Positions 20,090-59,624 of a stretch of 64,000 nucleotides of DNA are shown here, one piece after another (the stretch's first letter is position 1; every line of letters begins with the position of its first letter). The position numbers and the translations under genes are program-made. This DNA is from an uncultured Candidatus Rokubacteria bacterium (GTDB lineage: Bacteria > Methylomirabilota > Methylomirabilia > Rokubacteriales > DASRDR01). The notes beneath the pieces are model-generated. The model saw only the letters and a program-made list of their open reading frames with translations. It was not told the DNA's origin and searched no databases. The stretch covers positions 77,178 through 141,177 of the forward strand of contig CAWEXD010000004.1 of NCBI GenBank assembly GCA_963812945.1, read 5' to 3'.

Positions 20090-20101
20090 GACACGGTGAC
20101 G
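20090..20101. promoter_or_regulatory. UAS half-element GACACGGTGACG (second copy GACACCGCGTCG at 20109..20120)
   Basis: identical to the right arm of 38169..38200; centre 83 nt upstream (minus orientation) of -24 GG of the promoter at 19999..20014. Confidence 0.4.
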
Positions 20102-20140
20102 CGAGGGCGACACCGCGTCGGGAGAAGTGGCTTCATCGCG

Positions 20141-20788
20141 TCAGGCCGCCGGTCGAACGGCCCGGTCTTCCTCGAGCCGTGTCTCGACGCCGGACCAGTC
20201 GATGTTTCGGAAGAACGCCTCGATGTACTGGTCGCGCTCGGTGGCCTTGTAGTCGCGCATGAACGCGTGCTCCCAGACGTCCATGACCAAGAGCGGCTTG
20301 AACCCGGCCGGCACGCCGTCCTGGTGGAGCGTGATCCAGTGATTCGTGAGGCGGTCGCTCATCGGGTCCTGGAAGAGGATCACCCAGCCGACTCCTCGCA
20401 TCTCACCGATGGCCTGGAAGTCGGTGCGCCACCGGTCCACCGACCCGAAAGATCCGGCCAGGGCGGCCGCCAGCCCCGAGCCCGACGGAGGCTTGGGATC
20501 GGCGGCGGCCCGAAGGTTGCCGAAGTAGTACTCGTGCAGGATCATCCCGTTGTACTCGAAACCCAGGCGGCGCGTCGGCTCGGCAAACTCGGGACTCTTC
20601 CCGGATGCCTTGCCCTTCGCGAGCATCTCGGCCAGCTCCTCGTTGAGGGCGTTGACCTGCTTGACGTACCCCGCGTACAGGGTGAGATGCTCCGCGACTT
20701 GAGCGTCCGAGATCCCGTCCAGGCCTTTGAGTTCGAATTCCTGCTTCCGGTAGGCCTTCGGAGTCTTGGGAGCGGTCTTGGCTGTCAT
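20141..20788 (-). CDS. sod: Fe/Mn superoxide dismutase
   Basis: ATG preceded by GGAAGGAGG; Fe/Mn-SOD signature region DVWEHAF.RDY and conserved His/Asp ligand positions. Confidence 0.9.
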   Translation of the reverse strand: MTAKTAPKTPKAYRKQEFELKGLDGISDAQVAEHLTLYAGYVKQVNALNEELAEMLAKGKASGKSPEFAEPTRRLGFEYNGMILHEYYFGNLRAAADPKPPSGSGLAAALAGSFGSVDRWRTDFQAIGEMRGVGWVILFQDPMSDRLTNHWITLHQDGVPAGFKPLLVMDVWEHAFMRDYKATERDQYIEAFFRNIDWSGVETRLEEDRAVRPAA

Positions 20789-20900
20789 CGACGTCCTCCT
20801 TCCAGAACGATGAGTCGAGTCGGACGGGACAGGGCCCGGGGCGCCTGCCGGCGCGTCCGGGCCCTGCGAGGCCGCGGGTCGTTCCTCTCGATGCTGAGCG

Positions 20901-21599
20901 TCAGCCCTGAACCTTGAGGTTGTTGACCACGCGGCGCACACCCTCGACCTGCTGCGCAAGCTCGGTCGCACGCTGTCGTGTCTTGTCGCTGTCGACGGTG
21001 CCGTTCAGCTGCACGATGCCCTGCTTCGTGTCGACGTCGACCTTAAGCAGGGTGGCCGGCGACACCCCGGCGAGCCTCGTCTTCACCGCTGCGGTGATCG
21101 ACGCGTCGCTCCACGCCTTGCTGACTTCCTTGCCCCAGTCTCGGTCATTCGGATCCGGGTACTTGTCCGCCGTGAAGCTCGGTGACCGCTCGAGAGCCTC
21201 CTTCGTCACGTCGACGTGGACCGTCCGCTTCTCGCGGTCGAGAATCACCGCGTTCCAGGGCACGGCGAAGAGCTTGTCGCCGACGCCGAGGAACCCGCCG
21301 AACGACACCACGGCGTAGGCCACGTTCCCCTTGTAGTCGACAAGCAGATCCTCGATTTTCCCCGCGTCCTTGCCGGCCAGATCCTTGACGCCGCTCCCCA
21401 CCACCGAGCTGGCCCGGTAGAGACCCGTGTGCTCGGCGAAGCGTTTCGTGTTGGTGATCGGCTCGGCGCTCTTGGACACCTGCCCCGCGACAGACTTGGG
21501 CGCTGCGGGCTTGGATGCCGACTGGGCGCTCGCGTCCGTCATCCCCAGTGCGCCGCCAAGCGCCACCGCGGTGACGAAGGCGCAAACTCGGGTCTTCAT
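20901..21599 (-). CDS. PRC-barrel plus BON domain secreted protein
   Basis: signal peptide; PRC-barrel-like middle; C-terminal BON domain nearly identical in pattern to 36992..37297 (..ATL.KVDVDT..G.V.L.G.V....I.ARATELAQ.V.GVR.VVNNLKVQ). Confidence 0.7.
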   Translation of the reverse strand: MKTRVCAFVTAVALGGALGMTDASAQSASKPAAPKSVAGQVSKSAEPITNTKRFAEHTGLYRASSVVGSGVKDLAGKDAGKIEDLLVDYKGNVAYAVVSFGGFLGVGDKLFAVPWNAVILDREKRTVHVDVTKEALERSPSFTADKYPDPNDRDWGKEVSKAWSDASITAAVKTRLAGVSPATLLKVDVDTKQGIVQLNGTVDSDKTRQRATELAQQVEGVRRVVNNLKVQG

Positions 21600-21649
21600 G
21601 ATGCGTCGACCTCCCTCGGGTTTTCGTTGAGGAACCTGTCGACGAGACG

Positions 21650-21665: not shown

Positions 21666-21805
21666 GGGCCGGCGGGCGGGGACCCCGTGCGCGAAACGGC
21701 GCGCGAGAGGCGAGACGTGCGATCCGCAGAGGTGCCAGGCTGTCAGGGGCGCGACGTCGCGTCGCGAAGGCCGGCCCGATCGAGGCGCCCGATCGAGACG
21801 AAGGA

Positions 21806-22282: not shown

Positions 22283-22462
22283 GTCTGCGACGGTTCACCC
22301 CCCGCGTTCCCCCCACCCGCGCCAGGCTGACGCGGGGACGACACCGTGACGCGCCGGGCCCGGATGGCCGCCTCGGTTCGGCGGCGGGGCCTTCGCGTGT
22401 CCGCCAGGGTCCGCCGGGTCCACGTGAAGGTGCTCTCGGCCGGCGCCTGGTATGCCGGCCCC

Positions 22463-22530: not shown

Positions 22531-24372
22531 TTGCCCATCGGAGCGGAGGTCGCCCCGGAGGGTGGCGTCCACTTCCGGGTCTGGGCGCCGCACGCCGCGC
22601 GGGTCGAGGTCGATTTGGGCGACCAGCGCGTCGCCCTCGATGCGGAGCGCGGGGGGTACCATGCGGGTCTCGCCCCGGGGGCACAGGCGGGCTCGCGGTA
22701 CGCCTACCGGCTCGATGGGGGCCGAGGGTACCCCGACCCGGCATCCCGCTTTCAGCCCGAGGGCCCGCACGGGCCCTCGGAGGTGATCGATCCCGGTCGA
22801 TTCGCGTGGACCGATGACCGCTGGTCGGGCGTGTCGCGCGAGGGCCAGGTCCTGTACGAGATGCACGTCGGAACGTTCACCGCCGCCGGGACGTGGGAGG
22901 CGGCGGCCCGTGAGCTGCCGGAATTGGGGCGGGCGGGCATCACGGTCGTGGAGGTGATGCCCGTGGCCGACTTCGTGGGCGACTTCGGCTGGGGGTACGA
23001 CGGGGTCGATCTGTTCGCCCCCACGCGGCTCTACGGGCGCCCGGACGACTTCCGGGCCTTCGTCGACCGCGCCCACGCGCTCGGTCTTGGCGTCATCTTG
23101 GACGTCGTCTACAACCACCTCGGCCCGGACGGGAACTACCTTGGCCAGTTCGCTCCCGGCTACTTCAGCACCCGGCACCGGACGGACTGGGGCCAGGCGA
23201 TTAACTTCGACGGGGCTCGCTCGGGGCCGGTGCGGGAGCTCTTCGTCGCCAACGCCGGGTATTGGGTCGAGGAGTTCCACCTGGACGGGCTCCGGCTCGA
23301 TGCCACGCAGGACATCCACGACGACTCCCCCGAGCACGTCATCACCGCCATCGCGCGGCGCGCGCGCGAGCGGGCTGGCCGGCGGACGGTGTGGCTGGTG
23401 GCCGAGAACGAGCCGCAGGACACGAGGCTCGTGCGCTCCGTCGAGGCAGGCGGGTACGGTCTGGACGCCCTCTGGAACGACGACTTCCATCACAGCGCCA
23501 TGGTTGCCCTGACCGGCCGGGCCGAGGCGTACTACAGCGACTACGCCGGGACCCCGCAGGAGCTGATCTCGGCCGTCAAGCGCGGGTACCTCTACCAGGG
23601 CCAGCGCTACGCGTGGCAGGACGAGCCGCGAGGCACGCCGGCGTGGGACGTTCCGCCGGTGGCCTTCGTGAACTTCCTCCAGAACCACGACCAGGTGGCC
23701 AACTCGCTCGCCGGCCTGCGCGGTCATCAGCTGGCCAGCCCCGGGCGATACCGGGCCCTGACGGCCCTCCTCCTGCTGGCCCCCGCCACGCCCATGCTGT
23801 TCCAGGGCCAGGAGTTCGCCGCCTCGAGCCCCTTTCTCTACTTCGCCGACCTGCCGCCCGAGCTGGCGAAGCTGTCTCGGGCCGGACGGGCCGAGTTCCT
23901 CGCCCAGTTTCCAAGCCTCGCAGGGGCCGAGGCCCAGGCAGCCCTGGCCGACCCGGCCAGCCGCCTCACGTTCGAGCGGTCGAAGCTGGATCTGACCGAG
24001 CGCGCGCGCCACGCTGACGCCTATGCCCTGCACGTCGATCTGCTCCGCCTGCGGCGCGAAGACCCCGTCTTCCAGACGCAGGGAGCCGCCGGCGTGGACG
24101 GGGCCGTACTCGGGGCCGAGGCGCTCGCTCTCAGGTTCGTCGACCCCGACCCCGGTCCGCACGATCGGCTGCTCTGTCTCAACCTGGGACGCGACCTGAC
24201 GCTGCCGGCCGTCGCGGAGCCGCTGCTCGCGCCGCCCGAGGGCGCACGGTGGACCCTCCTCTGGTCCAGCGAGGCCGTCCGCTATGGCGGCAGCGGCACG
24301 CCCGAGCTCGACCCGGCCGCGGGCTGGTTCTTGCCCGGCCATGCCGCCCTCGTCTTCGGCGCCACGCGATGA
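22531..24372 (+). CDS. treZ: malto-oligosyltrehalose trehalohydrolase (GH13)
   Basis: N-terminus GVHFRVWAP..VEV pattern and GH13 catalytic regions; TTG at 22531 with GGAG 7 nt upstream, chosen because a sigma-54-like promoter predicts a transcription start near 22489; GTG at 22492 is the alternative. Confidence 0.75.
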   Translation: MPIGAEVAPEGGVHFRVWAPHAARVEVDLGDQRVALDAERGGYHAGLAPGAQAGSRYAYRLDGGRGYPDPASRFQPEGPHGPSEVIDPGRFAWTDDRWSGVSREGQVLYEMHVGTFTAAGTWEAAARELPELGRAGITVVEVMPVADFVGDFGWGYDGVDLFAPTRLYGRPDDFRAFVDRAHALGLGVILDVVYNHLGPDGNYLGQFAPGYFSTRHRTDWGQAINFDGARSGPVRELFVANAGYWVEEFHLDGLRLDATQDIHDDSPEHVITAIARRARERAGRRTVWLVAENEPQDTRLVRSVEAGGYGLDALWNDDFHHSAMVALTGRAEAYYSDYAGTPQELISAVKRGYLYQGQRYAWQDEPRGTPAWDVPPVAFVNFLQNHDQVANSLAGLRGHQLASPGRYRALTALLLLAPATPMLFQGQEFAASSPFLYFADLPPELAKLSRAGRAEFLAQFPSLAGAEAQAALADPASRLTFERSKLDLTERARHADAYALHVDLLRLRREDPVFQTQGAAGVDGAVLGAEALALRFVDPDPGPHDRLLCLNLGRDLTLPAVAEPLLAPPEGARWTLLWSSEAVRYGGSGTPELDPAAGWFLPGHAALVFGATR

Positions 24373-26456
24373 GCGATCCGATCCGCCGCATCGCCTGGCC
24401 CGGCCGCACCGCCCCCGAGGGGACCGGGCTCGGGACTCGGGAATGGCTCGTGACCAACGGGCTCGGCGGCTACGCTTCGGGCACCGTGTCCACCGTCATG
24501 ACTCGGCGCTATCACGGGCTCCTGATCGCGGCCCTGCCCGCCCCGCTCGGGCGGATGCTGATGCTGAGTCACCTGGACGAGCAGCTGTCCCTGCCCGACG
24601 GCACGGTCGCGGCCACGGCGACCGGCTGGGAGGTCAGCGGGGCCGGCAAGCCGATCGAGGTCGCGGATCTCGCCGAGTTCCGACTGGAGATGGGCCTTCC
24701 GGTGTGGCGCTACGAGCTGGGCGAGGTCGCCTTCGAGAAACGGCTCCTCCTCCCCTATCGCCAGAACACGGTTCACGTGAGCTACCGGCTGGTCGAGGGC
24801 TCGGAACCCATTCGGCTGCAGATCCGGCCGGCGGTCCACTTTCGGCCGCACGAGCAGCCCGTGAACGCCTCGCTGGCGGCGCCCTACGCGCTCACGGTCG
24901 TCGACGACCGGTACGAGCTGCAAGGAAGCCCGGGGCTGCCGCGGCTCCGACTTCGGATGCACAGCCCGGCCGCCACCTTTCACGTCGCCTGCGAGACGAT
25001 CCGGCAGGTCCTGTATTCCATGGAGCGCAGCCGCGGCTACGAGGCGACCGGCGATCTCTGGAGCCCCGGCTACTTCGTGGTCACCCTCGGGCCGGAGGGG
25101 CCCGCCACCCTGGTGGCGTCCACCGAGCCCTGGGAAGCCATGGACGCGCTCGATCCGGAGACCGCGCTGCGGGCCGAGCTGACCCGGCGGCGCCGCCTCC
25201 GGGCGGTGGCCCACCCGCACGCGCGCACGGGCACGGCGGCCGAGCTCGTCCTGGCCGCCGACCAGTTCGTCGTGGCGCCGGCCGGCCGGGTGGCGGACAC
25301 CGCAATCACTCGCGCCACGGGCGACGAGGCGCGCACGATCATCGCGGGCTACCACTGGTTCACGGACTGGGGGCGCGACACGATGATCGCCCTCGAGGGC
25401 CTCACCCTCGTGACGGGCCGTCACGTCGAGGCCGGCTACATCCTGCGCACGTTCGCGCTCTACGTGCGGGACGGCCTGATCCCGAACATGTTCCCCGAGG
25501 GCACGCGCGAAGGGCTCTACCACACGGCGGACGCCACGTTCTGGTACTTCCACGCGATCGATCGCTACCTCCGCGCGACCGGCGATCGCGAGACGCTCCG
25601 CCTGCTTCTTCCGACGCTGCTCGAGATCGTCGAGCGCCACGTGCGGGGCACCCGGTTCGGCATCGCCGTGGATCCGGCGGACGGCCTCCTGCGGCAGGGC
25701 GCGCCCGGCTATCAGCTCACGTGGATGGACGCCAAGGTCGAGGACTGGGTCGTGACCCCGCGGCGCGGGAAAGCGGTGGAGATCAACGCGCTCTGGTACA
25801 ACGCCCTCCGCCTCCTCGAGGGGTGGGTCCGCGAGGAACGCGGGATCGAGGCGTCGGCGGCCCTGGCCGAGCGGGCGGACCAGGTGCGCGCCGCCTTCAA
25901 CGCGCGCTTCTGGCATGCAGGGGGCGGCCATCTCTACGACGTGGTCGACGGCGAGGGCGGCGACGACGCCGCCTGCCGGCCCAACCAGCTCTTCGCGATC
26001 TCGCTGCGGCATCCGGTCCTGGACGAGGCGCGATGGACGTCGGTCATGACGGTGGTCCAGGAGCGCCTCCTCACGCCGGTGGGGCTTCGCACCCTCGCGC
26101 CGGACCATCCCGACTACAAGGCGACGTATGACGGTGATCTCCGGGCCCGCGACGCCGCCTACCATCAGGGCACGGTCTGGCCCTGGCTGATCGGCCCGTT
26201 CGTGGAGGCGTGGCTCCGTGTCCACCCCACGGACCGCGCGAGAACGCGAGCGCTTTTGGAGCGGTTCACGTCGCATCTCGACGAGGCCTGCGTGGGCAGC
26301 GTCAGCGAGATCTTCGACGCCGAGGTCCCCTTCACGCCCCGCGGGTGCATCTCCCAGGGCTGGAGCGTGGCCGAGGTGCTCCGCGCCCTCATCCTCACGG
26401 CCGAATCGGGGCCACCGGATCCGCCGGCGCCGCCCCGGGAGGGAGGACAGCCATGA
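24369..26456 (+). CDS. glycogen debranching enzyme, amylo-alpha-1,6-glucosidase type (GDE N-domain plus (alpha/alpha)6 catalytic domain)
   Basis: ATG overlaps treZ stop (ATGA); GYHWFTDWGRDT and other GDE_C signatures. Confidence 0.8.
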   Translation: MSDPIRRIAWPGRTAPEGTGLGTREWLVTNGLGGYASGTVSTVMTRRYHGLLIAALPAPLGRMLMLSHLDEQLSLPDGTVAATATGWEVSGAGKPIEVADLAEFRLEMGLPVWRYELGEVAFEKRLLLPYRQNTVHVSYRLVEGSEPIRLQIRPAVHFRPHEQPVNASLAAPYALTVVDDRYELQGSPGLPRLRLRMHSPAATFHVACETIRQVLYSMERSRGYEATGDLWSPGYFVVTLGPEGPATLVASTEPWEAMDALDPETALRAELTRRRRLRAVAHPHARTGTAAELVLAADQFVVAPAGRVADTAITRATGDEARTIIAGYHWFTDWGRDTMIALEGLTLVTGRHVEAGYILRTFALYVRDGLIPNMFPEGTREGLYHTADATFWYFHAIDRYLRATGDRETLRLLLPTLLEIVERHVRGTRFGIAVDPADGLLRQGAPGYQLTWMDAKVEDWVVTPRRGKAVEINALWYNALRLLEGWVREERGIEASAALAERADQVRAAFNARFWHAGGGHLYDVVDGEGGDDAACRPNQLFAISLRHPVLDEARWTSVMTVVQERLLTPVGLRTLAPDHPDYKATYDGDLRARDAAYHQGTVWPWLIGPFVEAWLRVHPTDRARTRALLERFTSHLDEACVGSVSEIFDAEVPFTPRGCISQGWSVAEVLRALILTAESGPPDPPAPPREGGQP

Positions 26457-26830
26457 CCCAGACGATCGCCCGCGTGTTCGGCATCGTGTTCCTGCTCGTC
26501 GGGCTCCTCGGCTTCGTCACGACCCCCTTCTCGATGGAGGGCGGGCTCCTCCTGGGTCTCTTCCCCGTCAACGTCCTGCACAACCTCGTGCACCTGATCT
26601 TCGGCGCGTGGGGCCTGCTCGCGGGCAGGACCTTCGCCGGCGCCACCGCGTACTGCCGGATCGCCGGGATCGCGTACATCGCGCTGGCCGTGGTCGGTTT
26701 CCTGACGCCGACGGGGTTCGGCCTCGTTCCCCTGGGCGGGCATGACGTCTGGCTCCACGCGATCCTCGGCGTCATCCTCACGGCCGGCGGGTTCCTCGAC
26801 CAAACCCGTCCCGTGCCGATCCGTCACTGA
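26453..26830 (+). CDS. DUF4383-family membrane protein
   Basis: ATG overlaps GDE stop; SD GGGAGGGAGG; 125 aa, four hydrophobic segments, NVLHNLVHL motif. Confidence 0.6.
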   Translation: MTQTIARVFGIVFLLVGLLGFVTTPFSMEGGLLLGLFPVNVLHNLVHLIFGAWGLLAGRTFAGATAYCRIAGIAYIALAVVGFLTPTGFGLVPLGGHDVWLHAILGVILTAGGFLDQTRPVPIRH

Positions 26831-30185: not shown

Positions 30186-31871
30186 TCACGCGCCCGGCGA
30201 CGCCTGCGGCTGTCGCCGGCGCGACAGGGTGTCGCGCTCCGGCTCACGCGGCGGCGGGGCCGCCGACTGGTAGCGAGCGAACACGTCGTAGAGCTGGATC
30301 GGGTGATCGATCTCGGCCGGGAGGGGCGCGTCCGACCGTGCCAGGACGAACGTGCGAAGCTCCTCGGGTGACGGGCCCGCATGGCAGCCGACCTCGTCGA
30401 TGTAGGACACGTGCCCCTCGGGTGCGTCGATGCCATAGACGACGAGGTCGCCGGCGCTCGGCATGGCCATCAGCGCGGTGAGGTCCCGCGTGACGCTCAG
30501 GCGGTCCTCTCGCTCCGCGAAGGGACCGCCCTCGAAGTCGGCCAGGCGATGAGACTGGCCGCGCCAGAAGCAGACGGGGCCGGCCGCCGCGCGCGCGAGA
30601 ACGACGCCGACACCGGCGCTCTTCGAGAGGGCCGCGGCGAGCCCGGGCCATCGGGCCTCGATGGCCTCCAGGAGCACGGGCTCGGGGGTGTCCACAAAGT
30701 ACACGAACGCGTTCGGTCCGGCCGAGACCACCCGGATCCCGTCCCGCTCGAACGACTCGCGGTCATCGAGGTACGGGTCGAACCCGAGCTCGTGCCTGAC
30801 GGCGTCGTCCGGCGGCGGCCCTTCCGTCGGAGCCTCGGCGGAGGCCGCCGCCGGGCGCCCGGCCGGGGAGCTTCCCGGAAGCAGATCGAAGAATGCGCGC
30901 TCGAACCGCTGCCCTCCAGCCATCACGGAATAGGGGATGCTCGACGCTTGCCCGTGGTCCGCGAGGACGTAGAGATCGTAGCGGTACTCGGGCACGCGCC
31001 GGAGGACGCGCCCGATCTGACGGATCGACCGGTCGATCCCGCGCAAGGCCGCGATCGCCTGGCGAGTCCGGGGGCCGGCGGTGTGAGCGGTCTCGTCGTA
31101 GTCCAGGTAGTTGACGTAGATCGCCGGCACCCCGTCGTAAGCGTCGCGGGCAACGGCCAGCGTGAACCACTCGCGTGTCCAGACCGAGATGGCGATTCGC
31201 TTCTTGGCCACCTTCCACGTCAGAGCCCGCTGGCTCGGGTGCCGGGCCATGCGGGCCAGGGCCCGGATGAGCTCCCGGCCGGTGAGCACGACACCTCTCG
31301 CCGCGACCCACGCGACCACCACGAACGCCGAGAGCGTCCGGACCACCCCGGGCGTCCGCGGTCGCGTGAGCCGGGCGAAGCTGAAGAGGTCGTGGATGGC
31401 GCCCCCGGTGAACACGCATCCGTAGACGCTGCCATCCCGCAGGATGCCCGCCCGATCCGCGGCTTGCTCCGCCTCCACGAATGCAGCGTGTCCCGCACGA
31501 GGAAAGTGGATGTCCGTGCGTCGCCGCTTGTCGTGGTAGTGGAACCCGGGAATGTCCGGCTGGACCCCGTACATGGCGGCCATCTGGAAGGCCGGGGTGG
31601 ACGTGGGAATGCCTACCGTCATGGGCGTCAGCCGGTATCCGCCGCGATCCAGGAGGCGCCGGACATGCGGCATCTCCCCGGAGGAGAGCGCCTGCTCGAA
31701 GACGGTGCGCGAGAGCCCGTCGATCTGGACGATCAGGAGACGCCGCCGCCCGGCCGCGGGCGGGACGCCAAGCCGGAATCGCCGGACGATCCGGTCGATC
31801 GCCCGCTGGGCGTGGAGAAACAGGTCGGCGACGGTCATCGGCGCTGGCCCGGCGGGCTGTTCATCGCTCAC
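30186..31871 (-). CDS. alkaline phosphatase superfamily protein (type I phosphodiesterase/nucleotide pyrophosphatase-like)
   Basis: LIVQIDGLS metal-site lead motif and later Asp/His clusters typical of the AlkP core; GTG start 8 nt below the PBP stop. Confidence 0.6.
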   Translation of the reverse strand: MSDEQPAGPAPMTVADLFLHAQRAIDRIVRRFRLGVPPAAGRRRLLIVQIDGLSRTVFEQALSSGEMPHVRRLLDRGGYRLTPMTVGIPTSTPAFQMAAMYGVQPDIPGFHYHDKRRRTDIHFPRAGHAAFVEAEQAADRAGILRDGSVYGCVFTGGAIHDLFSFARLTRPRTPGVVRTLSAFVVVAWVAARGVVLTGRELIRALARMARHPSQRALTWKVAKKRIAISVWTREWFTLAVARDAYDGVPAIYVNYLDYDETAHTAGPRTRQAIAALRGIDRSIRQIGRVLRRVPEYRYDLYVLADHGQASSIPYSVMAGGQRFERAFFDLLPGSSPAGRPAAASAEAPTEGPPPDDAVRHELGFDPYLDDRESFERDGIRVVSAGPNAFVYFVDTPEPVLLEAIEARWPGLAAALSKSAGVGVVLARAAAGPVCFWRGQSHRLADFEGGPFAEREDRLSVTRDLTALMAMPSAGDLVVYGIDAPEGHVSYIDEVGCHAGPSPEELRTFVLARSDAPLPAEIDHPIQLYDVFARYQSAAPPPREPERDTLSRRRQPQASPGA

Positions 31872-34369: not shown

Positions 34370-34446
34370 CCACAGCCGGTTGGCCGAAGCGTGTCGGCGA
34401 TCGATGTAGCGATCGATGGAGAAGGAACCGGGCACGCCATGCGCGC

Positions 34447-34472
34447 CACGGTGTCGCGAGCGCGACACCACG
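34447..34472. promoter_or_regulatory. palindromic UAS-like element CACGGTGTCGCGAGCGCGACACCACG
   Basis: contains GTGTC/GACAC dyad words; centre about 93 nt (82 plus one helical turn) from -24 GG of the promoter at 34353..34369. Confidence 0.35.
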
Positions 34473-34687
34473 ACGCTCGTGGCTCCTTGCGCTCCGGGCG
34501 CGCGCTCCGTGGACAGTTCCCGCGGGGAGGCTCCCGCGATCGAATCAAACCCACGGCGTGACGGCACGGCTTTCGCACCTCGCAGAGCGCGATGGTGGCT
34601 CTCCCAGGCGACGCCGAGAAGAAGGTTGACGCTCCCGAAAGGCGTCCGGCCTCCCCCGACCGCCACGGCCAATCACCGAACCAGCCG

Positions 34688-36451: not shown

Positions 36452-36620
36452 GCTCCAGGGCCCCCCGGAGCGCGCCGTCACCGTGTCGTGTCAACGACAC
36501 CGTGGCCAGGTCGTGTGCGGTCGAACACCGTGAAGACGTCGAGACTCGCCGGCGACGACTGTCGCTCATGTGCAGGCAGGACCGACCGTTTCCCTTCGAT
36601 TGCGATCCCGACGCCTCAGC

Positions 36621-36943: not shown

Positions 36944-36991
36944 GGAGGTCGTCCCAGGGCCTCTAACCGCTTGACAAGGGAGGTGACACAA

Positions 36992-38168: not shown

Positions 38169-38200
38169 CGTCACCCTGTCGTGACTCCGACACGGTGACG
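38169..38200. promoter_or_regulatory. dyad UAS-like element CGTCACCCTGTC-N8-GACACGGTGACG (candidate activator site)
   Basis: 12-bp inverted repeat with 10/12 arm complementarity, preceded by palindrome GTGACGTCAC; centre is 81-82 nt from the -24 GG of both divergent sigma-54 promoters (38090..38105 and 38266..38281). Confidence 0.5.
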
Positions 38201-43223: not shown

Positions 43224-43404
43224 GTGGAGGCCCTCCAGCCGTCGAGCTCAGGCCTCCCGAGGGAGGTCCCGACTACATTTCAGCCTAGCACGTGCGATGG
43301 GGACGTGCTGCGCGACGGAGGGGCGCGGCCGGTTTTTCGACGCGTCAGCATGACGCGGGGGCGACGACATGACGTCGCGGGCTCCGGGTACACCCTCCCG
43401 CCGG

Positions 43405-45077: not shown

Positions 45078-45109
45078 CGTCACCCTGTCCGTCCGGCGAC
45101 ACCGTGTCG
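45078..45109. promoter_or_regulatory. dyad UAS-like element CGTCACCCTGTC-N8-GACACCGTGTCG
   Basis: same 12-8-12 architecture and left arm as 38169..38200; centre 83 nt upstream of -24 GG of the promoter at 45176. Confidence 0.5.
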
Positions 45110-45492: not shown

Positions 45493-45929
45493 AGACGAAA
45501 GTCCTCCACGCGAACGGGACCCGCACGATCGCCGTCGTCTTCGAGACCGGCGAGGAGCCAATGCAGGGCCTCCTCGACGTTGCGAAGAGCGAGCGCCTCA
45601 CGGCGGGCCACTTCACGGCGATCGGCGCGTTCGAAGAGGTGACCCTCGGCTACTTCGATTGGGCGCGAAAGGACTACGCGCGGATCGCCATCCAGGAGCA
45701 GGTCGAGGTGCTGTCGCTGGTCGGCGACGTGGCGCTCGAGGGCAACGTGCCCAAGGTCCACGCCCACGTCGTCGTGGGCAAGCGCGACGGGACGGCGCAC
45801 GGGGGGCACCTTCTCGAAGCCCGGGTCCGGCCCACGCTGGAGGTCATCCTGATCCAGCCTCCCGGGCACCTGCGCCGGCGCTTCGACCCTCGGTCGAGGC
45901 TGGCGCTCATCGAGATCGAGGAGACGTGA
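45489..45929 (+). CDS. PPC-domain (DUF296) protein
   Basis: TTG start overlapping upstream stop (TTGA); PPC/DUF296 pattern (..GTRTIAVVFE.GEE....L......L.A.HFTAIGA....TLGYFD). Confidence 0.55.
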   Translation: MKTKVLHANGTRTIAVVFETGEEPMQGLLDVAKSERLTAGHFTAIGAFEEVTLGYFDWARKDYARIAIQEQVEVLSLVGDVALEGNVPKVHAHVVVGKRDGTAHGGHLLEARVRPTLEVILIQPPGHLRRRFDPRSRLALIEIEET

Positions 45930-45930
45930 G

Positions 45931-46161
45931 ATGCCACGATGCGACGTCTGCGGCAACGAGTACGACAAGACCATGTCGATCGACGCCTGGGGGCGCCGGC
46001 ACACCTTCGACTGCTTCGAGTGCGCGATCCAGCTCCTGGCACCCACCTGCGATCACTGCGGCTGCCGAATCATCGGTCACGGAGTCGAGAACGAGGAGGG
46101 CCGGATCTTCTGCTGCGCGCACTGCGCGCGCAAGGTCGGGGTGTCCGAGGTGCGCGCCTGA
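45931..46161 (+). CDS. tandem TRASH/YHS-domain metal-binding protein
   Basis: two repeats of CxxCG...(F/Y)xC(F/C)xxC: CDVCGNEYD...FDCFECAIQ and CDHCGCRI....IFCCAHCARKVG; SD GAGGAG. Confidence 0.5.
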   Translation: MPRCDVCGNEYDKTMSIDAWGRRHTFDCFECAIQLLAPTCDHCGCRIIGHGVENEEGRIFCCAHCARKVGVSEVRA

Positions 46162-46181
46162 GGCGCGACGGGAGGACGGCC

Positions 46182-46352
46182 ATGCCCGGGCGAAAGCATC
46201 TCCAGGGAGTCGGCGCCAAGGAGCAGCGCCAGTACGAGCACATCAAGGGGGCCGCGCAGAAGGAGGGCCGCTACGGGAAGCGCGCCGCCGAGATCGCCGC
46301 CCGGACGGTCATGAAGCAGCACGCGCGGAAGGGGCACCGCAAGGGCCAGTGA
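46182..46352 (+). CDS. small basic hypothetical protein (56 aa)
   Basis: ATG with GGGAGGA SD; Lys/Arg-rich, no motif recognised. Confidence 0.35.
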   Translation: MPGRKHLQGVGAKEQRQYEHIKGAAQKEGRYGKRAAEIAARTVMKQHARKGHRKGQ

Positions 46353-46426
46353 CGGCCGAGCGCGCCGGGAGCCCGGCGCAGCCGGGACCTATCCACTCAC
46401 CTCACTCACAGGGAGGCGCAAGAGCC

Positions 46427-46846
46427 ATGCGGCACATCCGCGTCACGGCATTCACGCTCGCCGCGTTGGGCGTCCTGGCGACGGCGCCGGCGGCCCAGAC
46501 CCCTCCAGTCGCGGCCACGGCCGCCGTCCCCGCGGACAGGCTCATCGGCGTGTGGCGAGGGCACTGGAGGGCGGATGACGGGGCGCAGCGCGGGGCAGTC
46601 GAGATGATCTTCGGCCACGAGCCCGGGCGCCCCACCATCGTCGCGCAGATGACCTTCCTCGACGGGAGCCGCGCGGACACGGTACGCCGCGAGGGGCGGC
46701 TGACACGCCAGGGTGCCTTCTTCGACCTGGTCGGAGGCGGCACCATGGTGCTGACGCTCTCGTCGGGCCGCCTCATCGGAGAGTTCGCCGGCGGCCCGGA
46801 CGTACCGACCCGGTTCGGGTCAGTCGAGCTGACTCGGCGCGGCTGA
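46427..46846 (+). CDS. secreted hypothetical protein
   Basis: SD GGGAGG; signal peptide MRHIRVTAFTLAALGVLATAPAAQ. Confidence 0.45.
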   Translation: MRHIRVTAFTLAALGVLATAPAAQTPPVAATAAVPADRLIGVWRGHWRADDGAQRGAVEMIFGHEPGRPTIVAQMTFLDGSRADTVRREGRLTRQGAFFDLVGGGTMVLTLSSGRLIGEFAGGPDVPTRFGSVELTRRG

Positions 46847-48593: not shown

Positions 48594-49025
48594 CTAGTCG
48601 GCCGATCGCGAGACGATCCCGTCGATGGCGTCGCGGAGCTGTCCCAGCCTGAACGGCTTCTCCAGATAGCTCGCGGCGCCCAGCCGGAGCGCGCTGGTCG
48701 CCACCTGACGGCCGCCGAACGCTGTCACGAGCACGACAGGGACTTTCGGGAACTCGCGGCGCAGGATCGGCAAGAGCTCGATGCCCGTGAGTCCCGGCAT
48801 CTCCTTGTCCAGGACGATGAGGTCGAACGGTGTCCCGCGCAGCGTCTCCACCACGTGGGTGCCCCGGTCCAGCTCCGTCACCTCATGCCCGTCGAATTCG
48901 AGCGTTCGCCGGAGGAGCGCTCGCATCTCGGCGTCGTCGTCGACGATCAGCACCCGGATGGGGCGCGGACGGCCTTCGACGTCACCCGCGGTCACGGCCG
49001 TACGGGCAAGAGACACGACACTCAT
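48594..49025 (-). CDS. single-domain response regulator (receiver)
   Basis: VLIVDDD...DLIVLDKEMPGLTG...KP; immediately downstream of the NtrC-type gene. Confidence 0.75.
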   Translation of the reverse strand: MSVVSLARTAVTAGDVEGRPRPIRVLIVDDDAEMRALLRRTLEFDGHEVTELDRGTHVVETLRGTPFDLIVLDKEMPGLTGIELLPILRREFPKVPVVLVTAFGGRQVATSALRLGAASYLEKPFRLGQLRDAIDGIVSRSAD

Positions 49026-49055
49026 GCCCTCGAATACAGCAAGGACCGTGCCAGC

Positions 49056-50420
49056 TCATGGCTGCTGGTCCGTCAGCCCGGGCCCCACCCGAAGCATGTT
49101 GGCCTGCATCCGCTGCAGCGTCCGCACGCTGATTCCGAGGATGCGGGCCGCGGCTCGCTTGTCGCCGCGGACCTCGTCAAGAATCCGACGGATGTACTGG
49201 CTCTCCACCTCGGCCAGGGACGGGCGCACGCCCAGCTCGCTACTGGACCCCGGGGTGAACTCGATGCGGAGGTCGTCCCGAGTAATGACGCGGCCCTTCG
49301 TCAGCGTGGCCGCCCGCTCGACGACGTTCTCGAGCTCGCGGACGTTACCCGGCCAGCTGTGCTCGTGGAGCCACTTGACGGCCTCCTCGTCGAAGCCGTC
49401 GATCTCCTTCCCCATCCCGGCGGCCGCGCGCTTCAGGAAGTGCTCGGCCAGGAGCGGGATGTCCTCCGGCCGCTCCCGGAGGCTGGGGATCCGGATCGGG
49501 AGGACGGCCAGCCGATAGTAGAGATCCTCGCGGAACTTCCCCTGACGCACGAGGGCGGGCAGGTCCCGGTTGGTGGCGCTGATGAGACGGAGGTCCACCT
49601 TGATCTCCTCGTTGCCTCCGACGGGCCGCACGACGCGGTCCTGGAGGGCACGAAGGAGCTTCACCTGGAGGGACTGGGGCATCTCGGCGATCTCGTCGAG
49701 CAAGAGCGTCCCGCCCTCGGCTTCCACGAAGAGGCCCCGCCGCTTCCGATCGGCGCCCGTGAAGGCTCCCCTCTCGTGTCCGAACAGCTCGGACTCCAGG
49801 AGCGTCTCGGGAATGGCCGCACAGTTGACGGCGACGAACGCCCCCTCGCGGCGGCCGCTGTGCCAGTGGATGGCCCGCGAGACCAGCTCCTTGCCCGACC
49901 CGCTGTCCCCCAAGAGCAGCACCGCCGCGTCGGTGTCCGCCACCACGCGGATCTGCTCGAACACGGACTGCATCGCCTTCGAGCGGCCGATGATGTTGTC
50001 GAAGCTGTAGCGGCGCTCGACCTCGGCCCGGAGCCGGCGGTTCTCCTCACGCAGGCGCTGGTCCTCGACGGCCCGCTTGACGACCAGGGACAGCTCCGGA
50101 AGCTTGAAGGGCTTCATCAGGTAGTCGTACGCACCCTGGCGCATCGCATCGATGGCGCTCTCGAGGCTCCCGAACGCCGTCATGAGGATGACGCGGGCGC
50201 GCGGCTGGACCTTCTGCGACTCGCGCAGCACGGCCAGGCCGTCCACGGGCTCCATGACGAGGTCGGTGAGGACGACCGAGTACTCCTCGCGTCCCAGCGC
50301 CGTCTGGGCGTCCTCCCCGCCGGTGACCGTCGTCACCGACCAGCCCTCTGTCTCGAGATGGCGCCGGAGCAGCGCCACCATGTCCGCATCGTTGTCCACG
50401 ACGAGAATTCGGGATTTCAT
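49056..50420 (-). CDS. sigma-54-dependent transcriptional activator, NtrC family (REC plus AAA+ plus Fis-type HTH)
   Basis: receiver D-box, Walker A GDSGSGKE, GAFTGA sigma-54 contact loop (ERGAFTGA), C-terminal HTH; ATG overlaps HK stop. Confidence 0.9.
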   Translation of the reverse strand: MKSRILVVDNDADMVALLRRHLETEGWSVTTVTGGEDAQTALGREEYSVVLTDLVMEPVDGLAVLRESQKVQPRARVILMTAFGSLESAIDAMRQGAYDYLMKPFKLPELSLVVKRAVEDQRLREENRRLRAEVERRYSFDNIIGRSKAMQSVFEQIRVVADTDAAVLLLGDSGSGKELVSRAIHWHSGRREGAFVAVNCAAIPETLLESELFGHERGAFTGADRKRRGLFVEAEGGTLLLDEIAEMPQSLQVKLLRALQDRVVRPVGGNEEIKVDLRLISATNRDLPALVRQGKFREDLYYRLAVLPIRIPSLRERPEDIPLLAEHFLKRAAAGMGKEIDGFDEEAVKWLHEHSWPGNVRELENVVERAATLTKGRVITRDDLRIEFTPGSSSELGVRPSLAEVESQYIRRILDEVRGDKRAAARILGISVRTLQRMQANMLRVGPGLTDQQP

Positions 50421-51898
50421 GGCTGCTCCCTCCCTGCTTCCGAGCTGGCTTCGGGCAGCCAGACGGTGAAGGTGGTGCCCTCGCCGGGCATGCTCGCCAC
50501 CTGGATCTCGCTGCCGTTGGACCGGACAAGGTCGCGACAGATCGCGAGGCCGAGACCGGATCCCTCGCGAGCGGGCTTGGTGCTGAAGAAGGGGTCGAAG
50601 ATCTTGGGAAGGACATCCGCGGGGATCCCGGATCCGCTGTCTCGAACCTCGATGGCGACCCCCGGCCGTCCGTCGTCCAGCCGGTGCGCCCCGGCGACCT
50701 CGACCCGGCCGCCGGCCGGCGTCGCCTCGATGGCGTTCGTGAGCAGGTTGATCAGCACCTGCTGGAGATGGCCGGGGTCGACGAGCACCTCCGGAAGGTC
50801 GCGCGGGAGCCTGACCGCCAGGGTGACGCCGCGGGTCCGGGCGAAATGCTGGAGCAACGGTCGGAGGCCCTCGGTGACCGACCCGGGCGCGGTGGCCGTC
50901 CGCTCGGGCTCGCGCTGGCGGAAGGGATCCAGGGCCGCGCGGATCATCTTGGATATCCGGTCGATCTGGGCGATGACGACGTCGAGGTCCTCCCGGAGCG
51001 GTGAGTCCTTGGGCACGGCGCGCAGCATCAGCTCGGCGCGGCCGGCAATGATGTTGAGCGGCGTGCCCACCTCGTGCGCGATGCTCGAGCAGAGCTTGCC
51101 GGCGATCGCGAGGCTTTCCGTCTGCCGCAGGCGGCGCATCAGCTCGAGCGACCGGTCCGACTCGGCCTCCACCCGCTGGCGGGCTTCCTCCAGCCGTTCG
51201 GTCATCCGGTTGAAAGCCGTCGCGACCTGACCCAGCTCGTCGCGGCTCCGGACCGGCACCGGCGCCGGGGCCGCGCCGGACCCGACACGCTCGATCCCCT
51301 GCATCAGGTCGGCGACCGGCCGGAAGACGAGGCGCTGGAGGGCCATCCAGATGATCAGGCCCAGGAGCACGACGAGCACGCTGCCCCGCAGCGCGATCTT
51401 GTAGTTCTCGCTGAGCAGGGCCGCCTCCAGGCGGCCCGCGACGAAGGCGACTTCGAGCACTCCGTCGTCGGAGCCGGACGACGAACGGACCGGGAGAAGC
51501 ACGCTGTGCAGCCGGATGCCCGCGCTCTGGTGCTCGACGACGGCCGGCTGGCCCGTCTCCCGGACCCCCCGATGCCGATCGAGGGACACTCCAGGATCGC
51601 CCGCGAGGAGGTTCGCGTCGACCCGCCGCGCCAGGTTCCGGTCCAGCAATCGGATGCGAACGATCTCGGTCTGCTTGACGACCAGGTCGTCGGCCAGCCG
51701 CTTGACGTCGGCCAGCGTGCCGCCCCGGAGCGCGTTCTCCACCGCAAGCCGGATGGCCGTGCTCGTGACGTTGACGCGCAACTCGAACTCCGCCCGTCGC
51801 TGTGCGCGCTCGTCTCTCATGAGGACGTACGTAAACACCGCGACGACCAGGACCATCGGCACGAGCAGGAGTAGGACTAGGCGAAGTCGCAGTCCCAC
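50417..51898 (-). CDS. sensor histidine kinase (2 TM, HAMP, HisKA, HATPase)
   Basis: H-box SIAHEVGTPLN, N-box LLTNAIEA, G-boxes DSGSGI, GSGLGLAI. Confidence 0.85.
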   Translation of the reverse strand: MGLRLRLVLLLLVPMVLVVAVFTYVLMRDERAQRRAEFELRVNVTSTAIRLAVENALRGGTLADVKRLADDLVVKQTEIVRIRLLDRNLARRVDANLLAGDPGVSLDRHRGVRETGQPAVVEHQSAGIRLHSVLLPVRSSSGSDDGVLEVAFVAGRLEAALLSENYKIALRGSVLVVLLGLIIWMALQRLVFRPVADLMQGIERVGSGAAPAPVPVRSRDELGQVATAFNRMTERLEEARQRVEAESDRSLELMRRLRQTESLAIAGKLCSSIAHEVGTPLNIIAGRAELMLRAVPKDSPLREDLDVVIAQIDRISKMIRAALDPFRQREPERTATAPGSVTEGLRPLLQHFARTRGVTLAVRLPRDLPEVLVDPGHLQQVLINLLTNAIEATPAGGRVEVAGAHRLDDGRPGVAIEVRDSGSGIPADVLPKIFDPFFSTKPAREGSGLGLAICRDLVRSNGSEIQVASMPGEGTTFTVWLPEASSEAGREQP

Positions 51899-52049
51899 GG
51901 GGTCCTCAGTCTAGCACGCGTCCGACGCGCGACAGCCCGCCCCCCGAACGACAGGATGGCGTTCGTCCTCGAGCGGCCGTGTTCGCGGCGGCGTGCATTT
52001 CGCGCGCACTTGTCGCGTCACACCAGGACGCCGCGCGCGCGGCCCCGCG

Positions 52050-52191: not shown

Positions 52192-52512
52192 ATGATGAGG
52201 CGCTCCACTCTCGCCACTCTGGGAAGTCTCCTGATCGCGACCGTGGTCCTGGGCGGTTGCTACATGCCGCCCTCCTCGGTCCAGGCTCCACCGCCGGCGC
52301 CAGCCGCTCCCGTGGAGACGGTGCCGGCGCAACCCGGTCCCAGCTACATCTGGGTGCCGGGCGCCTACACCTGGCAGCCGGCGACGCGCACCTACGTCTG
52401 GGTGCCGGGCCACTGGACGGTTCCGCCCCGAGGCTACGTCTGGGTCCCCGGTCACTGGGAAACGCACACCACCGGGAACCAGTGGGTCGATGGCTTCTGG
52501 CGGCCGAACTGA
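52192..52512 (+). CDS. lipoprotein with YXWVPGXW (WxxGxW-type) repeats
   Basis: lipobox LGGC; three repeats YIWVPGAYTW / YVWVPGHWTV / YVWVPGHWET; sigma-54 promoter about 125 nt upstream. Confidence 0.55.
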   Translation: MMRRSTLATLGSLLIATVVLGGCYMPPSSVQAPPPAPAAPVETVPAQPGPSYIWVPGAYTWQPATRTYVWVPGHWTVPPRGYVWVPGHWETHTTGNQWVDGFWRPN

Positions 52513-52535: not shown

Positions 52536-52802
52536 ATGAAGCGTTCTGGTGTCACGTGTGAAGGACGGGGTGCACGGTCCGTGCCGGCGGGGGGTCTCGG
52601 GCCCCCGGCCGGCCACGGGGCCGCGCGTCCCCCCGGGCCCGTGATCGAGCCCGATCCACGTCTCCCAGCCAAGGGTTCCGAGGTCCGCGTGACGCGATGC
52701 CCCGTCCACGGCATCGCCTACGACGGCGAGCGCGAGATCTGTCCCGAGTGCGCCAAGGGGGAGCCTCGCGACGAGGCGACCTCACGCTCCTCGCGTCCAT
52801 GA
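52536..52802 (+). CDS. possible small zinc-ribbon protein (CPVHG...CPEC)
   Basis: in-frame ATG inside a longer GC-artefact ORF; weak SD; low confidence. Confidence 0.3.
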   Translation: MKRSGVTCEGRGARSVPAGGLGPPAGHGAARPPGPVIEPDPRLPAKGSEVRVTRCPVHGIAYDGEREICPECAKGEPRDEATSRSSRP

Positions 52803-52863
52803 CGTTCTGATTCCGGGCGGCCTATCCCGAGCGCGCCGGGCCCACGATCTTGGCGTCGGCGCC

Positions 52864-52895
52864 GTCACGTTGTCGTCGCCGCGACATGATGTCGC
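52864..52895. promoter_or_regulatory. dyad UAS-like element CGTCACGTTGTC-N8-GACATGATGTCG
   Basis: 12-8-12 architecture related to 38169 and 45078; centre about 114 nt (82 plus three turns) upstream of the candidate promoter at 52992. Confidence 0.3.
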
Positions 52896-53213: not shown

Positions 53214-58342
<5,129 letters not shown>

Positions 58343-58392
58343 ACCGATCGTGCGGGGCTGGCGCCGCCAGCTCCTGACAGGAGGACGACATC

Positions 58393-58779
58393 ATGCCAGC
58401 CAGCTCGGCGGGGTTTCACGAGGCGGATGAGGCGCTGTCGCAGACGACGAAGGACATGCACCGGGCCATCGTCAGCCTGATGGAGGAGCTCGAGGCCATC
58501 GACTGGTACCAGCAGCGCATCGACGCCGCGGGCGACGACGAGCTGAAGGAGATCCTTCGTCACAACCGGGACGAGGAGAAGGAGCACGCCGCGATGGTGC
58601 TCGAATGGATCCGGCGCCGAGACCCGAGCTTCGACGAGGTGCTGCGGGCGTTCCTGTTCAAGGAGCAGCCCATCACCGCCCTCGAGCCGGGCTCGCCGAC
58701 GGGCAGCGGCCGGCGCGGCGCCGGCGGAGGCGCGAGCCAACCGTTCGTGAGCGTGGGATCGCTGAGAGGAGCCCAATGA
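58393..58779 (+). CDS. encapsulated ferritin-like protein (EncFtn cargo) with C-terminal encapsulin-targeting peptide
   Basis: HRAIVSLMEELEAIDWYQQRIDA..D.ELK.IL.HNRDEEKEHAAMVLEWIRR matches the EncFtn metal-binding helix motifs; C-terminal ..SVGSLRGAQ resembles family-1 cargo-loading peptides; SD CAGGAGG. Confidence 0.8.
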   Translation: MPASSAGFHEADEALSQTTKDMHRAIVSLMEELEAIDWYQQRIDAAGDDELKEILRHNRDEEKEHAAMVLEWIRRRDPSFDEVLRAFLFKEQPITALEPGSPTGSGRRGAGGGASQPFVSVGSLRGAQ

Positions 58780-59591
58780 TGGACATCCTGAGACGCGACA
58801 GCGCCCAGCTGTCTGACCGGGTCTGGAAGGAGCTGGACGAGGCGGCGGCCTCGGCGGCCAAGAACGTCATGACGGCGCGCCGGATCGCCACGTTCGACGG
58901 GCCCCGCGGTTGGGACTACATCGCGGCGCCCCTCGGCACCATGAAGGCCTGCCAGACGCAGGAGGGCAAGGCGATCGTCTGCGTGCCCGAGATCGCGCTG
59001 CTGGCGCAGCTCCGGGCCGACTTCAGCCTGCCCTGGTCGGCGGTCGAGGCCTTCGAGCGGGGCGGGCCAGCCCTCGACACCGAAACCGCGGAAACCGCCG
59101 CGCGCGAGGTCGGGCTCGCGGAGGATCGCCTCGCGTACTCCGGCCAACCGGTCGGGACCGGCTTCCTCGAGGATCCCGAGTCGCCGCGTCTCAAGCTCGG
59201 CGACTGGTCGGACCCGGCGCGGGTGATCGCCGACCTGGTGCGCGCGGTGGAGATGCTGGACCGGCTGACCGTGCCCGGGCCGTACGAGGCGGTCCTGTCG
59301 CCCGACCGGTACTACGCGTACCTGACGGCGGCGAACCGCGGCTACCCGGTGCCACGCCACACGAAGAACATCATCGCCGAGGTGCATCGGTCCCTCGTGA
59401 TGCAGGACGGCGGCGCCCTCTTCTCGATGCGCGGCGGCGATTTCGTGCTGACCGTCGGAGGCGATCTCGCGGTCGGCTATCGGTCGCACGACCGTGACGC
59501 CCTGCATCTGTTCTGCGTCGAAACCCTCGCGCCCCAGACCCTCAGCCCCGACGCGGTGTGCGTCCTGGAGGGCGCCGGTTCGCTCGCCTGA
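58776..59591 (+). CDS. family 1 encapsulin shell protein (HK97 fold)
   Basis: ATG overlaps EncFtn stop (ATGA), SD GAGAGGAG; about 271 aa with the conserved encapsulin N-terminus MMDILRRDSA.LSD..W..LD and C-terminal region. Confidence 0.8.
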   Translation: MMDILRRDSAQLSDRVWKELDEAAASAAKNVMTARRIATFDGPRGWDYIAAPLGTMKACQTQEGKAIVCVPEIALLAQLRADFSLPWSAVEAFERGGPALDTETAETAAREVGLAEDRLAYSGQPVGTGFLEDPESPRLKLGDWSDPARVIADLVRAVEMLDRLTVPGPYEAVLSPDRYYAYLTAANRGYPVPRHTKNIIAEVHRSLVMQDGGALFSMRGGDFVLTVGGDLAVGYRSHDRDALHLFCVETLAPQTLSPDAVCVLEGAGSLA

Positions 59592-59612
59592 CCTGCGAGA
59601 CTTCTTCGCGCG

Positions 59613-59624
59613 CGACACCGTGTC
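59613..59624. promoter_or_regulatory. UAS element GACACCGTGTCG (palindromic)
   Basis: identical to the right arm of 45078..45109; centre 81 nt upstream of -24 GG of the promoter at 59698. Confidence 0.4.

Follow-up and report, generated by a model that had tools for sequence, protein, structure and literature searches.

The stretch of DNA analyzed here, called the window throughout, comprises 64,000 nucleotides of contig CAWEXD010000004.1 from an uncultured Candidatus Rokubacteria bacterium (Methylomirabilota) and has a base composition of about 70% G+C. Its gene map is based on the G+C content at third codon positions (GC3), and domains were assigned by Pfam scans. Positions 1-19 kb encode ordinary metabolism, and from about 19.2 kb to the end of the window a dense block of stress-protection genes follows, which in addition to the genes listed below contains a metallo-beta-lactamase (MBL) protein and a GH15 trehalase-like protein. 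In this block a palindromic element recurs upstream of predicted sigma-54 promoters, which are recognized by their -24/-12 elements. A preliminary description of the sequence had presented the element as two 12-bp words separated by 8 bp and as the site of one dedicated bacterial enhancer-binding protein (bEBP) looping onto sigma-54 holoenzyme. The position, orientation, phasing and conservation of the element, all read from sequence, support this proposal. We consider it likely that the element is the upstream activating sequence (UAS) of a sigma-54 regulon of Methylomirabilota/Rokubacteria and that its reader is, most likely, the NtrC-family protein encoded at 49056-50420. This gene and its two operon neighbours are as follows.

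48594..49028, minus strand: single-domain response regulator, directly following the bEBP gene
49056..50420, minus strand: NtrC-family response regulator with receiver (REC), AAA+ and helix-turn-helix (HTH) domains, candidate cognate activator
50417..51898, minus strand: sensor histidine kinase with HAMP, HisKA and HATPase domains, predicted cognate kinase

Anatomy of the repeated element and its promoters

The frequency of the element was compared with dinucleotide shuffles of the window. With up to three mismatches, the dyad GTCACNNTGTC-N8-GACANNGTGAC was found 6 times versus 0.03 expected, and with up to two mismatches the 12-mer was found 29 times versus 12.2 expected. The motif is thus far more frequent than chance would give in sequence of such high G+C content, and a copy of it or of one of its arms is present at every coordinate named in the preliminary description. 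The recurrence of the dyad was confirmed in this way, but its division into 12, 8 and 12 bp was not the best one. As derived from 26 pooled sites of the window and related contigs, the element is more accurately viewed as a pair of 13-bp palindromes, CGNCA-N3-TGNCG, which are separated by 6 bp and lie 19 bp apart from centre to centre. The full recognition sequence reads CGNCA-N3-TGTCG-N6-CGACA-N3-TGNCG; its inner half-sites TGTCG-N6-CGACA (equivalent to TGT-N10-ACA) show the strongest conservation, and any base is tolerated at the third position of each outer half-site. Conservation is found at the defined positions alone, and spacer and flanks vary freely. The length of the spacer is itself specific, as TGWCG-N6-CGWCA occurs 7 times in the window and any other spacer of 0-12 bp gives 0-2 occurrences. 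The single 13-bp arm CGNCANNNTGNCG was found 19 times in the window versus 2.6 times in shuffles.

The whole window was then scanned with a symmetrised 32-bp weight matrix. This yielded 13 sites, all located between 20 and 62 kb, below which the score falls sharply, and zero sites at 1-19 kb. Sites 51930 and 61265 were found by the weight matrix and had been absent from the preliminary description, and two palindromes which it had called related, at 21751 and 43341, proved to be this motif in degenerate form, scoring 10.9 and 24.6 bits. A third arm 3' of site 36476, within the stretch 36483-36532 named earlier, was rejected, as just the degenerate, out-of-register CGAACACCGTGAAG is found there. 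The candidate UAS sites are listed below with their predicted promoters and the genes behind them. P(+) and P(-) give the strand of the promoter and GG the position of the first G of the -24 GG, to which all distances were measured from the dyad centre.

20089..20120: site, 29.9 bits; P(-) GG 20013, 91.5 bp; 24-residue transmembrane peptide, DUF1328 protein, CusF/DUF1344-like protein (19940-19296)
21733..21764: weak site, 10.9 bits; P(-) TGGCATCGTCATTGCT GG 21664, 84.5 bp; PRC-BON protein, Fe/Mn superoxide dismutase (21599-20141)
22320..22351: site, 32.9 bits; P(+) TGGTATGGAAGTTGCC GG 22464, 128.5 bp; TreZ-like protein, glycogen debranching enzyme, DUF4383 protein (22531-26830)
30203..30234: site, 17.5 bits, inner core CTGTCG-N6-CGACAG intact; P(-) GG 30118, 100.5 bp; 128-residue hypothetical protein (30051-29665)
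34444..34475: divergent site, 34.4 bits; P(-) GG 34367, 92.5 bp, 24-residue transmembrane peptide; P(+) GG 34563, 103.5 bp, AI-2E-family transporter (to 36451)
36476..36507: site, 38.0 bits; P(+) GGGCAGCAGTGTTGCT GG 36622, 130.5 bp; CsbD, BON and DUF3309 proteins (36707-37540)
38169..38200: divergent site, the best of all, 39.5 bits; P(-) GG 38104, 80.5 bp, hydrophilic protein resembling late embryogenesis abundant (LEA) proteins (38010-37624); P(+) GG 38267, 82.5 bp, hypothetical, holin-X-like, DksA-like, VTT/DedA and PLD proteins (38324-42128)
43343..43374: variant site, 24.6 bits, arms CGTCAGCATGACG and CGACGACATGACG; P(+) GG 43406, only 47.5 bp; DUF748 protein (to 45069)
45078..45109: site, 33.4 bits; P(+) CGGCACAGGCCTTGCT GG 45177, 83.5 bp; zinc-ribbon protein, PCC-domain protein, small hypothetical proteins (45257-46846)
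51930..51961: site, 14.6 bits; P(+) TGGCATGTGCCTTGCT GG 52051, 105.5 bp; WXXGXW-repeat lipoprotein (52194-52511)
52863..52894: site, 37.4 bits; P(+) TGGAATCGCCGTTGCA GG 52993, 114.5 bp; TreX, TreY, EncFtn, encapsulin (53214-59591)
59613..59644: site, 26.0 bits; P(+) TGGCACACGCCTTGCT GG 59699, 70.5 bp; small hypothetical protein, M48 peptidase, PsiE (59726-61228)
61265..61296: UAS-like site of uncertain function, 18.6 bits; between convergent genes

As can be seen from this list, for 12 of the 13 sites an outward-facing -24/-12 element lies within 40-140 bp (binomial p ~3e-12, with a chance of 9% per site), which agrees with the earlier statement that the element lies upstream of sigma-54 promoters. 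Two sites, 38169 and 34444, serve divergent promoter pairs. A distance of 81-83 nt in four cases, as given in the preliminary description, was not recovered: there, the centres of whole sites and of single arms had been mixed, and consistent re-measurement gives the different values listed above.

Some promoter-like sequences of the window stand apart from these pairs. The match at 40809(+) overlaps a ribosome-binding site that precedes a start codon by 18 bp and the match at 52585(-) is a perfect palindrome after a gene end, and neither was counted as a promoter. The palindrome, TGCACGGTCCGTGCA (52571-52586), directly follows the gene of the WXXGXW lipoprotein and is kept in three related contigs (L081 at ~7870, L082 at ~7887, and L118); its possible roles are those of a terminator stem, a real promoter or a site for another factor. 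Back-to-back sigma-54-like elements, 61727(-) GGGTATGTGCCTTGCA and 61741(+) TGGCACCTTGCTTGCT, occupy 61712-61756, about 460 bp from site 61265.

An element that is palindromic, GC-rich and mostly intergenic might also be a dispersed repeat (similar to repetitive extragenic palindromes or miniature inverted-repeat transposable elements) or a terminator hairpin, in either case without any sequence-specific regulatory function. Site 61265, which lies promoterless between convergent genes, would fit such an origin. We nevertheless regard this explanation as highly improbable, as conservation that is confined to defined positions and leaves spacer and flanks free, as well as a fixed distance and orientation to the -24/-12 elements, speak against it. 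Moreover, no T-runs follow the sites, which are found upstream and not downstream of the genes they would regulate, and the element is confined to one functional class of genes and missing from the metabolic genes at 1-19 kb.

Conservation and helical phasing in related contigs

The link between the element and sigma-54 promoters was analyzed independently of the window by an exact-pattern scan of metagenomes with CGNCANNNTGTCGNNNNNNCGACANNNTGNCG, in which the motif was the only criterion. At least 120 contigs matched, and the matches listed comprise 100 in contigs of at least 60% G+C and 24 in contigs below 60% G+C; the following results refer to these listed matches. An outward-facing sigma-54-like promoter at 55-140 bp was detected for 73 of the 100 high-GC matches, compared with a rate of 4.9% at random positions in the same contigs and of 4% when promoters facing inward were counted. 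For the low-GC matches an outward-facing promoter in this range was detected in 1 of 24 cases. These matches (L094, L113, L124, L130, L133, L169, L202 and others) were set aside as being without sigma-54 promoters, and they are probably unrelated elements or chance occurrences. Directly repeated arms are frequent among them, for example CGACAATATGTCG present twice.

After de-duplication, the distances between site and promoter formed clusters at about 81.5, 92, 104 and 114.5 bp, and Rayleigh statistics peaked at a period of 10.75-11 bp (R = 0.54, p ~1e-9, n = 71). When one value was taken per downstream protein family (33 families), the result held (R = 0.53, p ~1e-4). Further, orthologous promoters are shifted relative to their sites in steps of about 11 bp, as observed for MscS (91.5/103.5 bp), PCC (81.5/92.5 bp) and SBP (92.5/102.5/114.5 bp). 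The whole-helical-turn increments proposed in the preliminary description were thus strongly borne out by independent metagenomic sites, but within the window alone they did not reach significance. Such a quantisation of distances is, as purely statistical evidence, the signature expected of a short DNA loop between activator and holoenzyme: a short loop would place activator and polymerase on the same face of the helix and thereby give distances of about 81.5 + n x 11 bp.

The same data bear on a second explanation, in which the palindrome is the operator of a factor other than a bEBP, such as a repressor or a nucleoid-type protein acting as anti-activator or roadblock, and co-occurs with sigma-54 promoters. 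Palindromic units of 13 bp are also typical of repressor operators, site 43343 lies just 47.5 bp from its promoter, and binding to site 51930, at 32 bp from the start of the kinase gene, could repress. This explanation appears very unlikely to us. At 70-130 bp upstream of the -24 element the sites lie beyond the footprint of the polymerase, so that a repressor would be ineffective there, and the quantisation at 10.75-11 bp is that of a looping contact. In addition, sigma-54 promoters require an activator, and between site and promoter there is no other conserved block; finally, the motif tracks one bEBP clade.

A protein search with the bEBP returned orthologues of 71-97% identity, the sources of which are named Methylomirabilota, Rokubacteria or Rokuibacteriota. 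Syntenic contigs (L081-L086) encode orthologues with 91, 88, 75 and 72% identity and have kept the kinase-bEBP pair and many of its neighbours in a rearranged gene order. Corresponding intergenic locations have kept their sites in these contigs, with a sigma-54 promoter 60-127 bp from every one; among them are the stretches ahead of the TreX operon and of the PCC operon, the one after encapsulin, the one between the divergent LEA-like and holin-X operons and the one directly upstream of the kinase gene. In the lineages examined for the latter position (the window, L081, L082, L083 and L085), the kinase-bEBP operon is directly preceded by a site. Individual promoters can also be followed between contigs. 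The promoter P(+) 22464 of the TreZ-like operon was also found in L122, the divergent arrangement around site 38169 recurs in L081, and the unusual -24 sequence TGGAAY of the TreX promoter at 52993 is kept in L081, L082, L101 and L118.

Footprint alignments of the csbD (A1) and PCC (A2) promoter regions were made from five lineages. In both, conservation is limited to the site, the -24/-12 elements, the ribosome-binding site and the start codon. In the csbD alignment, the distance between site and promoter is 130.5 bp in the window, 129.5 bp in L098 and 81.5 bp in L114. This indel of 49 bp corresponds to about 4.5 helical turns, and the longer distances are therefore out of phase with the main series.

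The candidate activator

The protein encoded at 49056-50420 consists of REC, Sigma54_activat (PF00158, 9.5e-71), AAA_lid and Fis-type HTH_8 (PF02954) domains, contains the GAFTGA motif in its translation and has the recognition helix SVRTLQR. The frame of the kinase overlaps the bEBP gene by 4 nt, and the pairing of both genes is kept in L081-L086, L108 and L136. According to the Pfam scans this protein is the sole bEBP of the 64-kb window, and rpoN was not detected within the window by the same scans. Since site 51930 lies 32 bp upstream of the start of the kinase-bEBP operon, autoregulation of this operon is suggested.

Co-localisation of site and regulator was analyzed from both sides. Of the 100 listed contigs selected by the motif, which have a mean length of about 5.5 kb, 15 encode a homologue of at least 63% identity and just 3 a paralogue of 42-50% identity. 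Conversely, the entries listed in a search of genome contigs with the bEBP protein were all paralogues of 40-48% identity from many phyla, with no orthologue among them; they served as negative control, and no site was found in the 80 listed loci around them. The HTH sequence AA[RK]ILG[IVL]S[VI]RTLQR is invariant in the clade of 62-97% identity, and ZraR and other paralogues differ in it. These observations are in favour of the protein already named as the candidate activator in the preliminary description, and they make a strong circumstantial case that it forms a cognate pair with the site.

Downstream of the bEBP gene, a perfect sigma-54 promoter, TGGCACGGTCCTTGCT (49053-49038, minus strand), takes up the 30-bp spacer that separates the stop codon of the bEBP gene from the start of the response regulator gene. 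Its -24/-12 elements are kept in L081, L082 and L136 and the remainder varies; no UAS-like site is present inside the 3' end of the bEBP gene. The single-domain response regulator at 48594..49028 may act as a feedback element.

A sub-clade of bEBPs with 63-64% identity and an identical HTH is encoded beside genes of SBP_bac_5 substrate-binding proteins (L112, L132, L145, L185, L196). The sites in these contigs share the TGTCG-N6-CGACA core, but their arms are of the form CAA-N-TTG and the -24 element is unusual, TGGCC; the sub-clade may represent a paralogous regulon with related specificity. With an identical HTH and the same core, several paralogues may share one specificity. The element could accordingly be a genuine sigma-54 enhancer whose reader is another bEBP from a different part of the genome, such as a paralogue that has the recognition helix in common; the local two-component system would then be a further target or a co-regulator. 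The orphan promoters 49052(-) and 61741(+), which imply at least one further activator or activation independent of a site, are in line with this. We consider such a reader unlikely. The close homologues on the 15 contigs mentioned above lie within a few kb of sites, the same co-localisation is found in four of four syntenic lineages despite their rearranged gene order, and both the site directly upstream of the kinase-bEBP operon in the window and four related contigs and the lack of a second bEBP in the window point to the local protein.

Several points weigh against a UAS read by the 49056-50420 protein. The promoters are predictions from a simple weighted consensus requiring GG-N10-GC. Taken alone, the window gives no more than a hint of phasing (Rayleigh p 0.17 at a period of 10.5 bp, 0.03 at 11 bp), and the distances of 128.5 and 130.5 bp and, more weakly, 100.5 bp are out of phase, so that the csbD and TreZ promoters form an out-of-phase pair at about 129-130 bp. 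The sigma-54 promoters 49052(-) and 61741(+)/61727(-) are without any site, and site 61265 is without a promoter within 140 bp. Lastly, as the sub-clade beside SBP_bac_5 genes combines the same HTH with the same core, the sites of the window could be shared with, or read by, a paralogue.

For binding, signal, oligomeric state and direction of regulation we infer the following course of events. Upon an envelope or osmotic cue, the HAMP kinase (50417-51898) would phosphorylate the NtrC-type regulator, which would then bind the site by its Fis-type HTH, probably as two dimers, one per 13-bp palindrome, that nucleate the AAA+ hexamer. Alternatively, one dimer might occupy the inner TGTCG-N6-CGACA dyad, the half-sites of which are 11 bp apart. 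The bound activator would loop over about 80-130 bp to sigma-54 holoenzyme in the closed complex at -24/-12, and ATP hydrolysis would drive the formation of the open complex; from a single site, two divergent promoters could be fired. At least 14 promoters of the window would thereby switch on a protective programme consisting of trehalose synthesis by TreXYZ, glycogen debranching, encapsulated ferritin, superoxide dismutase, CsbD/BON/DUF1328 stress proteins, a DksA-like factor and membrane-remodelling enzymes.

The predicted regulon among known systems and its meaning

The genes downstream of the sites in the listed contigs resemble those of the window. They encode CsbD, BON, DUF1328, PRC-barrel and PCC proteins, TreZ/TreX and other alpha-glucan enzymes, catalase, MscS channels, DUF1003 proteins, single-domain response regulators and REC-NTP_transferase fusions. 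The latter fusions of a receiver with a sugar-nucleotidyltransferase are direct targets, with site and promoter, in L134, L151, L175 and L184. A stand-alone NTP_transferase gene precedes TreX in L081 and L082, and no such gene is present in the window. The two transmembrane peptides of 24 residues, MPLIMWLLGVPLSLIVILWLMGVV (19866-19940, minus strand) and MRPVILYMLGVPVFLIVILWLFGVV (34237-34311, minus strand), are paralogous and are both missed by ordinary lists of open reading frames; each is the first open reading frame behind a sigma-54 promoter of the predicted regulon.

In its architecture the candidate activator is similar to NtrC, AtoC and ZraR, with which it shares the order REC-AAA+(GAFTGA)-Fis-HTH and an adjacent cognate histidine kinase. 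Tandem dyad enhancers are known from this group, for example from NtrC at glnAp2, and have in common with the present element paired palindromes about 80-130 bp upstream of -24/-12 elements, independence of orientation and the ability to serve divergent promoters. The NtrC site, TGCACC-N5-GGTGCA, differs from the recognition sequence found here, and the targets are concerned with stress protection and not with nitrogen, acetoacetate or zinc. Among NCBIfam profiles, AtoC, NtrC, a PEP-CTERM response regulator, ZraR and GlrR gave the top matches, and the closest solved homologues are NtrC-family proteins of Aquifex (4l4u, 1ny5) and ZraR (1ojl). The equivalog scores were 461.6 for AtoC (cut-off 714), 435.5 for NtrC (cut-off 558.6), 409 for ZraR (cut-off 760) and 407.8 for GlrR (cut-off 763). 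As the protein remains below every equivalog cut-off, it is none of these named regulators and belongs to an unnamed subfamily of the NtrC family. The general mechanism of bEBPs, in which a UAS about 100-150 bp upstream of the promoter is brought to the polymerase by DNA looping, has been described (PMC7057263).

The UAS of NifA has the consensus TGT-N10-ACA (PMC4999443). Formally, the core TGTCG-N6-CGACA of most of our sites conforms to this consensus, and the distance upstream of sigma-54 promoters is similar as well. In contrast to NifA, which has a GAF domain, the regulator described here has an N-terminal REC domain; its score with the NifA profile TIGR01817 was 367.7 versus a cut-off of 528.85, and this match covers residues 118-395, that is, the AAA+ part only. 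In addition, outer arms bring the site to a length of 32 bp, and nif genes are not among the targets. Dependence on the face of the helix is classical for the NifA UAS, for which PMC7057263 cites Buck et al. At norVW, NorR uses three enhancer sites, and several adjacent palindromes are needed for the active oligomer (PMC2831303). NorR thus has three sites at one promoter and a GAF sensor, whereas the system described here has two arms per site, many promoters and, by prediction, control through phosphorylation.

General stress regulons such as those of RpoS in Enterobacteria, SigB in Bacillus and EcfG/PhyR in Alphaproteobacteria depend on an alternative sigma factor with a partner-switching or anti-sigma cascade. 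The overlap of their gene content with the set found here is striking and includes CsbD/YjbJ, BON/OsmY, DUF1328/YtjA, trehalose synthesis, superoxide dismutase, catalase, PsiE and MscS channels. Unlike in those regulons, the promoters here are of the sigma-54 type, and specificity would come from one enhancer-binding response regulator and its UAS.

No description of the regulon or of its recognition site was found in the literature searched, and a search for Rokubacteria together with trehalose gave ecological papers only. What is presented here is a predicted bEBP regulon with its recognition site, from an uncultured phylum and not described before, that would work by an ordinary mechanism. 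As this mechanism is that of the textbook, no new principle is involved, and what counts is the new regulon together with its role in physiology; interest comes from how large and coherent this regulon is, from the clean helical quantisation and from its ecological relevance. It also provides an unusually large natural data set, spanning dozens of gene families, for the question of how bacterial enhancers keep their helical phasing in the course of evolution.

Rokubacteria are abundant soil bacteria with large genomes which have never been cultured, and to our knowledge nothing is known about their gene regulation. Tentatively, and with somewhat less than even confidence, we propose that the stress, desiccation or dormancy programme of Rokubacteria/Methylomirabilota is run by sigma-54 and a single two-component bEBP instead of a dedicated alternative sigma factor, through a 32-bp double palindrome at strictly quantised distances, often with divergent promoter pairs, within a stress island of more than 40 kb. 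If this is true, the system would be analogous in function to RpoS, SigB or EcfG but would use the enhancer mechanism, and the programme would also cover catalase, MscS channels and membrane remodelling. The regulon would be predictable in any metagenome-assembled genome of Rokubacteria by a motif scan, and its promoters could serve as markers in metatranscriptomics of drying and rewetting. What emerges is a testable regulatory code, in which a single sensor kinase, a single activator and a single 32-bp site would serve at least 14 promoters and govern those genes that matter most for survival under drying, osmotic and oxidative stress in soil.

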